From IMG/VR virus record IMGVR_UViG_2706794676_000012: DNA of 39,720 nucleotides; one strand, given 5' to 3'. The translations under genes and the position numbers were made by a program. This DNA comes from a virus (lineage: Duplodnaviria; Heunggongvirae; Uroviricota; Caudoviricetes). Position 1 is the stretch's first letter; every line of letters begins with the position of its first letter. The notes beneath the pieces are model-generated. The model had not been told where the DNA came from. It saw only the letters and a list, made by a program, of their open reading frames with translations, and searched no databases. Shown here in pieces: positions 20,988-23,091 of this stretch.

Positions 20988-21164
20988 ACCGGCAGCATAA
21001 GCCGGGTATTTTTGGGGCTGGTTTTGCGGGACTTCAGAAAGTGCTGACAGGGGGGGAATGAGAAAGGCGCTTCACGCAGATTTTAAAGCCCGTTAAATAC
21101 AGGTTAGAAAATCACGACACGCGCCTGAAGGGGGTAAGGTAATACGTTTGCATACCTTAAACCA

Positions 21165-21638
21165 TTACGGCGTTTCTGTGGCCTTTTTAAAGCGTTTTCT
21201 GATTTCGTCCATGATCTCCTGTTCTGCCACCTGATCAAAGCCCATATACGGACGTGCGCCAATGGCCGCCGGTCCCGGTGGCATACCAGGCAGGCCACCC
21301 CACTGATGAATGGCTGCATAAGGTTCATTTGATCCAATCAGCGCCCAGGTATCGCCATAATCCGTGGTCAGGCGGCGGGCCAGATCGCCGTTCAGCGTCA
21401 GGATTTTGCCGGGCGTGTATCCCTTACGGGTACGCCACTCACGGTAAGGATCTGACCAGTCATGCCAGCGTTCACCATCCGGCTCTTTTTCCTGCTCAAA
21501 CGCCATTTCTGACGATGACAGAAGACTCGCCGCCACACTGCGGGCCAGGTCTTTTCCGCCGCCCACAAACTGAAGCCGGGCAAACACTCGCTGGAGACGC
21601 GTAACGTCAACAACGACAGCTGCATCAATGGATGACAT
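21165..21638 (-). CDS. Virion morphogenesis protein (Mu G-like)
   Basis: 157 aa; position after the F-like gene. Confidence 0.7.
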   Translation of the reverse strand: MSSIDAAVVVDVTRLQRVFARLQFVGGGKDLARSVAASLLSSSEMAFEQEKEPDGERWHDWSDPYREWRTRKGYTPGKILTLNGDLARRLTTDYGDTWALIGSNEPYAAIHQWGGLPGMPPGPAAIGARPYMGFDQVAEQEIMDEIRKRFKKATETP

Positions 21639-21678
21639 ATTGCCTCCGCATAAAGGATGAATATAAAATAAACAGGCG

Positions 21679-21758
21679 GTCAGTGTACGCTTAACTGGTA
21701 AAGTCGGTGCCTGCCTCCGGGTGGATCATGTATGCGGGTTCGACCCCCGCCACTGACC
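21679..21758 (+). ncRNA. tRNA-like element (acceptor stem + D-arm + canonical T-arm; no anticodon stem, no encoded CCA)
   Basis: GTCAGTG (21679-21685) pairs perfectly with CACTGAC (21751-21757); T-arm GCGGG-TTCGACC-CCCGC (21734-21750) has the canonical T-loop; D-arm-like GCTT-AACTGGTA-AAGT. Located in the F-G intergenic region. Confidence 0.3.
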
Positions 21759-21759
21759 G

Positions 21760-23091
21760 TTAATCAATTTGTCCTTCCAGCACCTCAAGCATTCCGCCCC
21801 GGATATCCGATTTCAGCTTATCCATATTGATAACCCGGTAAGCATTCACAATCACATCCAGTTTGTCGGGCTGACGTTTCAGACTGTACGGTGCATTAAC
21901 GGCAATCTGCACACTGCCATCCTGATTTTCCACGATATACATCAGATTGTTGTGCCGTTTGTCCCACAGTACCGCTTTTGGCCTTGCCAGCATTGCCGGT
22001 AAGCGCCCGAAGTCCTCCGGCGTCAGAGCGATGCCGTCATTCTGATGTTTCACACTGTCCGCATGGAGCACATTTTTACCGCTCATCGCCAGCAGGCGGG
22101 CCGGTGGCGTTCCCGTCCGGCTTTCCACTGCCTGCGCAATGCTTTCAGTCATAAAGCCCAGCGTGCGGATATCGTTACCACCTCGCCGGGTCTGCATGAT
22201 GTTTTTTGCCCAGATGCGGAACGCCAGCTGCCGCTCCGGGCTGTTGTTCATCTCCTGAACCACCATTTCCCGTAACGCCGGGCTTTTCACCTCGATCAGT
22301 TTGCGGATCAGCGCCTGGTCTGTGCCGAACGCTGCCGAGCCGGGGTTATATGACCAGCCCACATCCGGTGTCATGGTTCTGGCGCCATCTGAATATGTGG
22401 TCACCGGCATTTCTCTGACTTCTCCGGTCTGTTTATCCACGCCAGCCTCAACATTGCGGGTGGAGAGATGATCCTCACCGGATGAAACGGATAACCCCAT
22501 TGCATCCAGACGGGCCTGAGACAATGGCCGCACACGGCAGCGGCAGTTCCAGCCATTGGGCGGGTAGTGTGTTTTCCAGAACGGATCGTCATAGCGGAAT
22601 ACCAGACCGTTAAGGGCGGAATGCGACGGGCGGGTACGGCTGTCCATGACCGCCACATACTGCCAGAACGGATGCGTGTCCGTGTTGTTCATCATCTGCG
22701 TGTAACGCCCGGCATTGTAAGCCACACGGGTGTTCACGTTGTAAATCAGCGCCAGACGACGGGGACTGCCCTGCTGCACTTCTTCCGCGTTACCGTCGCT
22801 GTCCACCACAATCTGCTTTCCCCACCATCCCAGCTTTTGCAGGCGTGGCGTCAGTGTGCGGATAAATTCTTTCTGTGAAATCCCCTCATCAATGGCCCGC
22901 TGCACTTCGGCCTGTAATGTGGTTACCACATCCAGCCGTGCCGTTTTTGCTGCCGTGAATGAGCGGGCATGAACATCCGCGTCTGTTTCGAACCAGTTCC
23001 AGCTGATATGCGCCCCTTTGGCGCGGAAGTATGCCACCGTCTCTTTTGAGGGAAGCGTGGCGGCATAACCTAAATCAATCCCCTGAGCCAT
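21760..23091 (-). CDS. Minor head / head morphogenesis protein (Mu F-like)
   Basis: 443 aa; position after the portal gene. Confidence 0.75.
   Translation of the reverse strand: MAQGIDLGYAATLPSKETVAYFRAKGAHISWNWFETDADVHARSFTAAKTARLDVVTTLQAEVQRAIDEGISQKEFIRTLTPRLQKLGWWGKQIVVDSDGNAEEVQQGSPRRLALIYNVNTRVAYNAGRYTQMMNNTDTHPFWQYVAVMDSRTRPSHSALNGLVFRYDDPFWKTHYPPNGWNCRCRVRPLSQARLDAMGLSVSSGEDHLSTRNVEAGVDKQTGEVREMPVTTYSDGARTMTPDVGWSYNPGSAAFGTDQALIRKLIEVKSPALREMVVQEMNNSPERQLAFRIWAKNIMQTRRGGNDIRTLGFMTESIAQAVESRTGTPPARLLAMSGKNVLHADSVKHQNDGIALTPEDFGRLPAMLARPKAVLWDKRHNNLMYIVENQDGSVQIAVNAPYSLKRQPDKLDVIVNAYRVINMDKLKSDIRGGMLEVLEGQID

Follow-up and report, generated by a model that had tools for sequence, protein, structure and literature searches.

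RNAs that imitate transfer RNA (tRNA) without decoding are known from several systems, which include the Y RNAs, transfer-messenger RNA (tmRNA), viral tRNA-like structures and a pseudo-tRNA of Bacillus cereus. The tRNA-like module of the YrlA Y RNAs is modified and, in one species, is cleaved by RNase P and given a CCA end (PMC4201824). The B. cereus pseudo-tRNA, tRNA-Other, was proposed to be the tRNA-like module of a regulatory RNA (PMC3399842). Among the transposable (Mu-like) phages, no family of such mimics is known as conserved cargo. Here, we report the analysis of a tRNA-like element located between the head genes F and G of a Mu-like prophage, in a DNA stretch of 39,720 nucleotides (nt) from the IMG/VR virus record IMGVR_UViG_2706794676_000012 (Caudoviricetes). 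This whole stretch is referred to as the window, and positions are those of the window unless another locus is named. Full-text literature searches retrieved no description of the element.

The analysis revealed a fold which retains the core of a tRNA, carries a variable helix at the place of the anticodon arm, and is conserved with compensatory changes. We hold much more confidently that the element is an expressed structured RNA gene than we hold any mechanism of binding. The reading that we favour is an independently transcribed, non-decoding tRNA mimic which would bind one or more proteins that recognise the core or elbow of tRNA, and which would be accessory cargo of temperate phages and satellite-like islands. 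Taken as a whole, this reading is given about an even chance of being correct.

Fold and conservation of the tRNA-like element

The features of the element are listed in Table 1. An earlier note, made from the letters of the window, had described a perfect acceptor-like stem of 7 base pairs (bp) which encloses a T arm and a D-arm-like hairpin, and both of these arms are present in the sequence. The pairing of GTCAGTG with CACTGAC was also recovered, but the true helix is longer and comprises nine Watson-Crick pairs, or 11 when two G-T pairs are included. The same note held that no anticodon stem can be formed; a hairpin does form at that place, with an inner stem of CTGCC and GGTGG around the loop TCCG, while the 7-nt anticodon loop is indeed missing. 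The note had also marked a 12-nt region as the place of a long variable arm; no such arm is present, and a 4-nt linker (GTAT) precedes the T arm instead. The remark that no CCA is encoded was correct, as C21758 is followed by GTTAATC in the window.

Members of the family were gathered by scanning collections of viruses, genomes and metagenomes for a pattern, and from loci that encode relatives of the G protein. Among the genome contigs, the strict pattern gave no match, and a relaxed pattern led to Citrobacter braakii and Edwardsiella anguillarum. About 30 distinct sequences were obtained in total, 24 of which were used in the covariation alignment, and 33 distinct sequences were aligned to a covariance model built for the element. 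Across the 24 sequences, tRNA-type pairing was observed in 89.5% of the cells, and 11 of the 19 pairs presented changes on both sides. The covariation score was 0.364 as compared to 0.182 ± 0.015 in shuffled alignments, none of which reached it (0/500), although the shuffle statistics overstate independence given that the homologues share descent. The number of double changes is unaffected by shared descent, and the same holds for the control in which the pairing partner was slid by 1–3 columns, where covariation was at most 0.118.

The compensatory changes were distributed over all three stems. In the T stem, pair 50:64 changed from C-G to U-A in eight members and pair 51:63 from G-C to A-U in two; in the D stem, pair 13:22 changed from U-A to C-G in three members; and acceptor pairs 2:71 to 5:68 exchanged freely. 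RNAalifold independently found the closing stem and the T arm. The nucleotides U8, A14, G18-G19 and A21, as well as UUCGA of the T loop, were kept across the 33 sequences aligned to the covariance model. The earlier note had pointed to related prophages as a check, and in the 24 distinct homologues the paired positions are kept with compensatory changes. Together with the Rfam tRNA score given below, the conservation and the compensatory changes show that the element is not a chance match. When the plus strand was tallied, 27 G-U pairs were counted against two A-C combinations; this asymmetry identifies the plus-strand RNA, rather than the DNA or the late mRNA, as the molecule under selection.

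The central region is where the element departs most visibly from a canonical tRNA. Between the D and T arms, all members form a single irregular helix of 17–34 nt, and the sequences of these helices are unrelated. The helix starts 1–2 nt past the D arm and stops 4 nt before the T arm, and is often capped by a tetraloop; its loops span 3–14 nt (for example UUCG, UCCG, GUAA, GUAC and CAU). Folding of all members revealed a conserved 7-nt loop of the anticodon type in none of them. A reading of the hairpin as an anti-Shine-Dalgarno sequence was rejected, as the CCUCC of the window copy is not kept (CCUUC in L009 and L019).

The acceptor end differs as well. Positions -1:73 and -2:74 are paired in 19–20 of the 24 homologues, with exchanges among G-C, U-A, A-U and C-G, so that positions 73 and 74 are not single-stranded, and the "discriminator" base is variable (C, U or A) and paired. 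The closing helix comprises 9–11 bp in most members and 12–15 bp in L075, L096, L102 and L104. One extra nucleotide separates A9 from the D stem. At pair 3:70, C-G or U-A was observed, and no G3:U70 pair is present.

The element is borderline for tRNA finders, and its automated detection is marginal. Searches with tRNA finders and covariance models, which the earlier note had proposed, gave a divided result. Neither the window nor any of 11 related loci gave a tRNA or tmRNA call with ARAGORN; the program does call a true tRNA-Val in L099, which was among the pattern-scan matches. In a permissive Rfam scan of positions 21550–21900 (351 nt), the tRNA family RF00005 matched 21679–21758 on the plus strand at 31.0 bits, against a gathering threshold of 29 (E = 9.4e-5, which becomes ~0.01 when rescaled by arithmetic to the whole window). 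The acceptor, D and T arms were matched, and the anticodon arm was skipped. Besides tRNA, only a weak, chance-level match to STnc480 was obtained in this run. At gathering thresholds, Rfam returned no match in the entire window, because the speed filters lose the element.

Similar behaviour was observed among the relatives. RF00005 scored 34.2 bits in L070, 31.8 in L103, 26.9 in L075 and 24.5 in L087, and was not reported at E ≤ 1 for the class B and satellite copies (described below). RefSeq annotation by the Prokaryotic Genome Annotation Pipeline (PGAP) places the label "tRNA-OTHER" at the equivalent spot, on the same strand, in many Escherichia coli genomes. No curated RNA family is dedicated to the element, for which Rfam 15 yields only the marginal tRNA match. 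Its current labels are therefore limited to "tRNA-OTHER" or, wrongly, "tRNA-Tyr", and a dedicated covariance model would stop such tRNA calls. The "tRNA-Tyr" call, made by PGAP in the islands, is an artefact in which GUA lies within the palindrome CAGCCUGUACAGGCUG, a 6-bp stem with a 4-nt loop; the copy so labelled is of class A (L002 3997–4078, with equivalents in 13 other E. coli genomes). Two T-loop variants were also seen to circulate, G57A (TTCAACC) and A58C (TTCGCCC), as observed at L109 337–466 (E. coli 95JB1) and in L008-type copies. The G57A copy is otherwise identical to that of the window and is unannotated by PGAP, and the A58C polymorphism is common to phage and satellite class A copies.

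Transcription unit, genomic setting and distribution

Following the analysis of the fold, the upstream region of the element is considered. A consensus scan identified a sigma-70-like site on the plus strand, TTGCCT-18-TAAAAT (21640–21669). Conservation of the -35 hexamer is weak evidence because it overlaps the ribosome-binding site of G. The -10 hexamer follows the form TAnnnT (TAAAAT, TACAAT, TATACT, TACTAT or TATATT) in nearly all stand-alone members, where it is located 8–14 nt ahead of tRNA position 1. Longer closing helices go with larger distances across 12 lineages (r = 0.80, permutation p = 0.0017). When the transcription start was taken as the seventh base after the -10 hexamer, the mean offset between the predicted start and the base of the helix was 0.8 nt in these lineages. 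In the window, the start is predicted at about 21676, at the base of the closing helix. This position suggests that the primary transcript has no leader and that its 5' end is paired from the outset. With a start at the helix base, stand-alone copies would need no removal of a 5' leader.

The element fills the spacer between F and G and is antisense to both of these minus-strand neighbours, against the direction of the late operon. Given that the gene faces the late operon, we expect its RNA to be produced chiefly in the lysogen, where late transcription is silent. A whole Mu-like prophage of ~38.5 kb occupies positions ~600–39200 of the window in reverse orientation, with genes for a transposase, an adjoining AAA-family ATPase, Gam and Mor, as well as com/mom and a tail-fibre segment that can invert. 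An identical prophage in an E. coli chromosome splits a gene for an SgrR-family regulator between queC and cof. The placement between head genes F and G, as given in the earlier note, was confirmed by Pfam, which identified the neighbours as F-like (Phage_Mu_F and MuF_C) and G-like (Phage_tail_S).

Table 1. Coordinates of the tRNA-like element, its predicted promoter and the adjoining genes in the window.
Feature	Positions	Strand	Basis or remark
Predicted tRNA-shaped RNA, closing-helix base to base	21675–21761	+	R1 model, 92.4 bits; Rfam; covariation
Closing helix, 5' strand, CGGTCAGTG	21677–21685	+	tRNA positions 1–7 are 21679–21685
Closing helix, 3' strand, CACTGACCG	21751–21759	+	followed by the F stop codon (21760–21762, minus strand)
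Nine Watson-Crick pairs of the closing helix	21677–21685 with 21751–21759	+	11 pairs with two G-T pairs
7-bp core of the closing stem, GTCAGTG with CACTGAC	21679–21685 with 21751–21757	+	
U8, A9, extra C and D arm	21686–21704	+	Rfam alignment; covariation
D arm, GCTT / loop AACTGGTA / AAGT	21689–21692 / 21693–21700 / 21701–21704	+	
Variable irregular hairpin at the place of the anticodon arm, with linker GTAT	21705–21733	+	folding
Central hairpin, CTGCC (loop TCCG) with GGTGG	21711–21715 with 21720–21724	+	
Outer pairing of central hairpin, GTG with CAT	21707–21709 with 21727–21729	+	
T arm	21734–21750	+	Rfam alignment; covariation; RNAalifold
T arm, GCGGG / loop TTCGACC / CCCGC	21734–21738 / 21739–21745 / 21746–21750	+	
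Predicted -35, TTGCCT	21640–21645	+	consensus scan; overlaps the G ribosome-binding site (GGAGGCAA, minus strand)
Predicted -10, TAAAAT	21664–21669	+	consensus scan; 9 nt upstream of tRNA position 1
G-like virion morphogenesis gene	21165–21638	-	Pfam Phage_tail_S, E = 1.2e-33; 54.6% identity to Mu G
F-like head morphogenesis gene	21760–23091	-	Pfam Phage_Mu_F, E = 4.8e-30, and MuF_C

Two further ideas about this neighbourhood were rejected. In one, F would be a polymorphic toxin of the MuF type against which the RNA confers immunity; Pfam shows only Phage_Mu_F and MuF_C in F, and no toxin domain. The element was also considered as a strong gyrase site; the site of Mu lies between G and I, and not between F and G. 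The spacer of the window that matches the gyrase-site spacer of Mu is instead the G-I spacer (20988–21164), which shares a block of ~27 nt (CGnGATTTTnnAACCnGTATTTAACGG) with the G-I spacer of Mu. This block is probably the homologue of the central strong gyrase site annotated in the Mu record.

The element behaves as an insertion of ~110 bp, comprising the predicted promoter and the RNA, in one branch of Mu-like phages (Sp18-type, after the prophage Sp18 of E. coli O157 Sakai). A 601-bp region that spans it is carried by 231 of 5426 complete E. coli genomes (~4%), many of them Shiga-toxin-producing. Placement between F and G was observed in prophages of E. coli, C. braakii and E. anguillarum, where the G proteins are 61–74% identical to that of the window, and the same position is occupied in the distant Mu-like phages L102, L103 and L105. 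Across the members, some of which come from more distant hosts, the G proteins range to about 60% identity or less. The flanking coding DNA is only 57–72% identical, while the scaffold and the covariation are kept.

The element is absent from phage Mu itself, whose F and G genes overlap by 4 nt and therefore leave no room for it. It is also absent from the Shewanella phage MuM16-1, where the F-G spacer measures 9 nt, and from the F-G junction of L064, where the two genes abut. Mu, D108, SfMu and the Mu-like phages of Yersinia match G and gave no DNA match to the 601-bp query. SfMu was reported to be without tRNA genes (PMC4406740), which fits the absence of the element from the Mu/D108/SfMu branch. 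In GenBank, the element was found only in Mu-like insertions within two Shiga toxin (Stx) phage records.

Copies at other positions were also seen. In one Mu-like lineage, represented by L096 (11859–14313), L104 and L106, a copy lies downstream of the head genes, between genes for DUF2971 and DUF2199, which are typical accessory genes; the closing helix of the L096 copy is ~15 bp. The metagenome contig L075 holds two divergent copies (117–200 and 751–836), ~550 nt apart in the same orientation, and each has its own TATACT box and a closing helix of 12–14 bp.

Further members reside in islands which resemble phage satellites. An ~8-kb island without structural genes is located at the ileX tRNA gene of E. 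coli JNEC-KY179 (L002 1–4300; L094 2500–10700). Its order is an integrase adjoining ileX, Ash and Icd-like proteins, a DUF4222 protein, a RepA helicase, SSB, PerC, a Mor homologue (44% identical to the Mor of the prophage), iterons, two tandem tRNA-like genes and the chromosomal nfeF. Between mor and the tRNA-like array, five repeats that contain GTGAAA are spaced ~10 nt apart (L002 3731–3808), and are likely to form an iteron-type replication origin. The metagenomic relatives L081, L084, L088 and L090 carry two or three tandem copies. An island copy (H42) is the closest relative of the window copy outside the Mu-like phages, with 84.9% identity over 71 nt, including a long common stretch in the T-arm region.

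Three classes were distinguished by the central helix, namely A (that of the window), B-short and B-long. Each phage carries one class, and the islands hold one copy of each. A promoter-like site is found only at the first copy of an array; the later copies, which are separated by U-rich spacers, have 7–8-bp stems and no promoter, and would therefore need processing of the tRNA type. Of the 5426 E. coli genomes, 14 contain the island, and the Mu-like prophage is also present in at least three of the 14 (binomial p ~0.02 against the baseline of 231/5426, a value confounded by strain relatedness). The island may thus be a phage satellite that exploits Mu-like helpers, a suggestion for which the co-occurrence is only a lead. 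No toxin gene was found beside the arrays, the satellite arrays being followed by nfeF or dinD-like chromosomal genes.

Readings of the element

Among the options that the earlier note had left side by side, the tRNA-mimic RNA gained support. The tRNA core is kept, the stems covary, the G-U bias (27 vs 2) is found on only one strand, and a promoter-like site lies upstream. As a mimic, the element would be a "moron" cargo of promoter plus RNA, inserted between F and G and transcribed from its own sigma-70-type promoter against the late operon, mainly in the lysogen. The product would be a small, stable, non-decoding RNA in which the closing helix is stacked on the T arm, and in which the D arm and the nucleotides that lock the elbow and core are retained. 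Such an RNA could act as a binder, an inhibitor or a decoy by displaying its tRNA core and elbow to one or several proteins that sense the shape of tRNA. As selection is seen on the tRNA fold and on no single-stranded "seed", structural mimicry is the most likely mode of action. The stable tetraloops on the variable helix and the compensated drift of the acceptor fit an RNA that works by shape. A role as accessory cargo is suggested by the tandem arrays at the cargo end of the islands and by the copy beside the DUF2971 and DUF2199 genes.

Several points weigh against the mimic as we picture it. A decoy would have to compete with the very large cellular pool of tRNA, unless it binds far more tightly. 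The full complementarity to the late F-G mRNA allows antisense pairing instead. No obvious gene for a tRNA-binding protein was seen among the annotated features of the neighbourhood. The promoter, the start and the 3' end are predictions from consensus matches. No intrinsic terminator-like site was found downstream of the element, so that the 3' end would have to arise through Rho or through trimming as far as the helix. To these points is added the shared descent of the homologues discussed above.

Beyond the mimicry itself, the family might serve as weapons or shields in the conflict between mobile elements and hosts, for example as a high-affinity inhibitor of an immune or toxin protein that recognises tRNA, or as a tool of satellites against their helper; the three classes would then be variants of specificity. 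The presence of phage copies and of multi-class satellite arrays suggests a selectable function. We regard this proposal as doubtful; if it were true, the element would constitute an accessory function made of RNA only and based on tRNA mimicry.

The main rival explanation starts from the orientation of the gene. The element runs against the late operon and takes up precisely the spacer between F and G. It could therefore be an antisense regulator of the late-mRNA junction, working in cis when made by the prophage and in trans when made by satellites, by inducing cleavage or by blocking G expression. The lambda OOP RNA acts on cII by antisense. The T-arm-region stretch shared by H42 and the window copy means that satellite RNAs could pair with the late mRNA of a helper, and the satellites hold one copy of each phage class. 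The fold would then serve for stability only, which leaves unexplained the invariant tertiary nucleotides of the loops and the compensatory changes in every stem. Moreover, the common stretches are buried in stable helices, and the copies in L096, L104, L106 and the satellites are antisense to no local gene. An antisense role is thus considered unlikely.

That the element is an unusual but functional tRNA, or an acceptor of amino acids, was judged improbable. Under this explanation, the RNA would be cleaved by RNase P, trimmed at its 3' end, given CCA and charged, for use in translation or in a non-ribosomal transfer. The tRNA-OTHER label comes from tRNAscan-SE within PGAP, the Rfam scores reach 31–34 bits, and the array copies that lack their own promoter and have 7–8-bp stems would need processing of this kind. 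The tRNA-like Y RNAs can indeed receive both RNase P cleavage and CCA (PMC4201824). Against this, the 7-nt anticodon loop is present in no member, and the acceptor end is of the wrong kind, with a variable and paired discriminator, a closing helix of 9–15 bp which covaries at -1:73 and -2:74, and no G3:U70. The tRNA genes of E. coli encode CCA, and the element does not.

The remaining explanations have very little in their favour. It is highly improbable that the minus-strand transcript is the functional one, as a signal for processing, stability or translational coupling of F and G. The element does lie within the late operon, with the ribosome-binding site of G 30 nt downstream, and its minus strand folds stably too (-29.3 kcal/mol, z = -1.95). 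However, each G-U pair of the plus strand corresponds to an A-C mismatch in the minus-strand RNA (27 vs 2), the T-loop and D-loop motifs are correct only on the plus strand, and the satellite copies lie in no operon of that orientation.

A decaying pseudogene, that is, a former phage tRNA which lost its anticodon arm and its function, was another option of the earlier note and is hardly credible: ARAGORN rejection, the marginal Rfam scores and the circulating A58C and G57A variants would suit it, but about 30 distinct members all lack the anticodon loop and yet keep the scaffold and its covariation amid diverged flanking DNA, the central hairpin has been swapped for different helices which always fold well, the -10 box is conserved, and copies have been duplicated into satellite arrays. 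Equally remote is a site that works at the DNA level, whether a protein-binding palindrome or, as the third option of the earlier note had it, a recombination or attachment target of the type known from the 3' ends of tRNAs; tRNA-like sequences are common targets of integrases and an inverted repeat flanks the element, but 227 of the 232 matching E. coli records cover at least 80% of the query in one place, uninterrupted, no prophage was seen in which an island had entered the 3' half and was flanked by a direct repeat of it, the related island uses ileX, and the strand-asymmetric G-U pairing indicates selection at the RNA level.

Comparison with known systems

Set beside the canonical tRNA (RF00005), the element shares the 7-bp acceptor core, the D arm with G18-G19, the T arm with UUCGA, U8 and A14, and a short variable linker. 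It differs in that a helix of variable length replaces the 7-nt anticodon loop, no CCA is encoded, the closing helix is extended to 9–15 bp, an extra nucleotide follows A9, and ARAGORN rejects it. The tRNA-like domain of tmRNA likewise mimics the acceptor and T arm without an anticodon, and differs from the element in having G3:U70, an mRNA-like part and pseudoknots. ARAGORN reported no tmRNA, and the Rfam tmRNA matches in the relatives were at chance level (17.6 and 15.1 bits against a gathering threshold of 47).

Other small RNAs of mobile elements differ as well. Unlike type III toxin-antitoxin RNAs, the phage copies are single and the satellite arrays have no adjoining toxin gene. Lambda OOP and P22 sar are short prophage RNAs which run against a phage operon, and are simple stem-loops that act by pairing. 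They possess neither a tRNA fold nor a covarying four-way junction.

Parallels are also offered by the two systems with which we began. YrlA Y RNAs are also non-decoding, mimic the T arm, the D arm and an acceptor-like stem of tRNA, and occur in phages (PMC4201824; bioRxiv 10.1101/312249). The ends of YrlA form a stem that binds Ro60 and its gene lies beside rsr (Ro60), whereas the ends of the element close an acceptor-like helix. The B. cereus tRNA-Other is similarly a tRNA-like gene tied to a mobile island and acting outside translation (PMC3399842), in another organism; it is contained in longer transcripts and flanks its island as a former integration site. The element belongs to neither group: no Ro60/TROVE gene was found among the 67 features annotated in the identical prophage and the DNA beside it, a stem for Ro60 binding is lacking, and tRNA-Other comes from a different organism and is built differently. 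Compared with the latter, it is internal phage cargo and is predicted to be leaderless.

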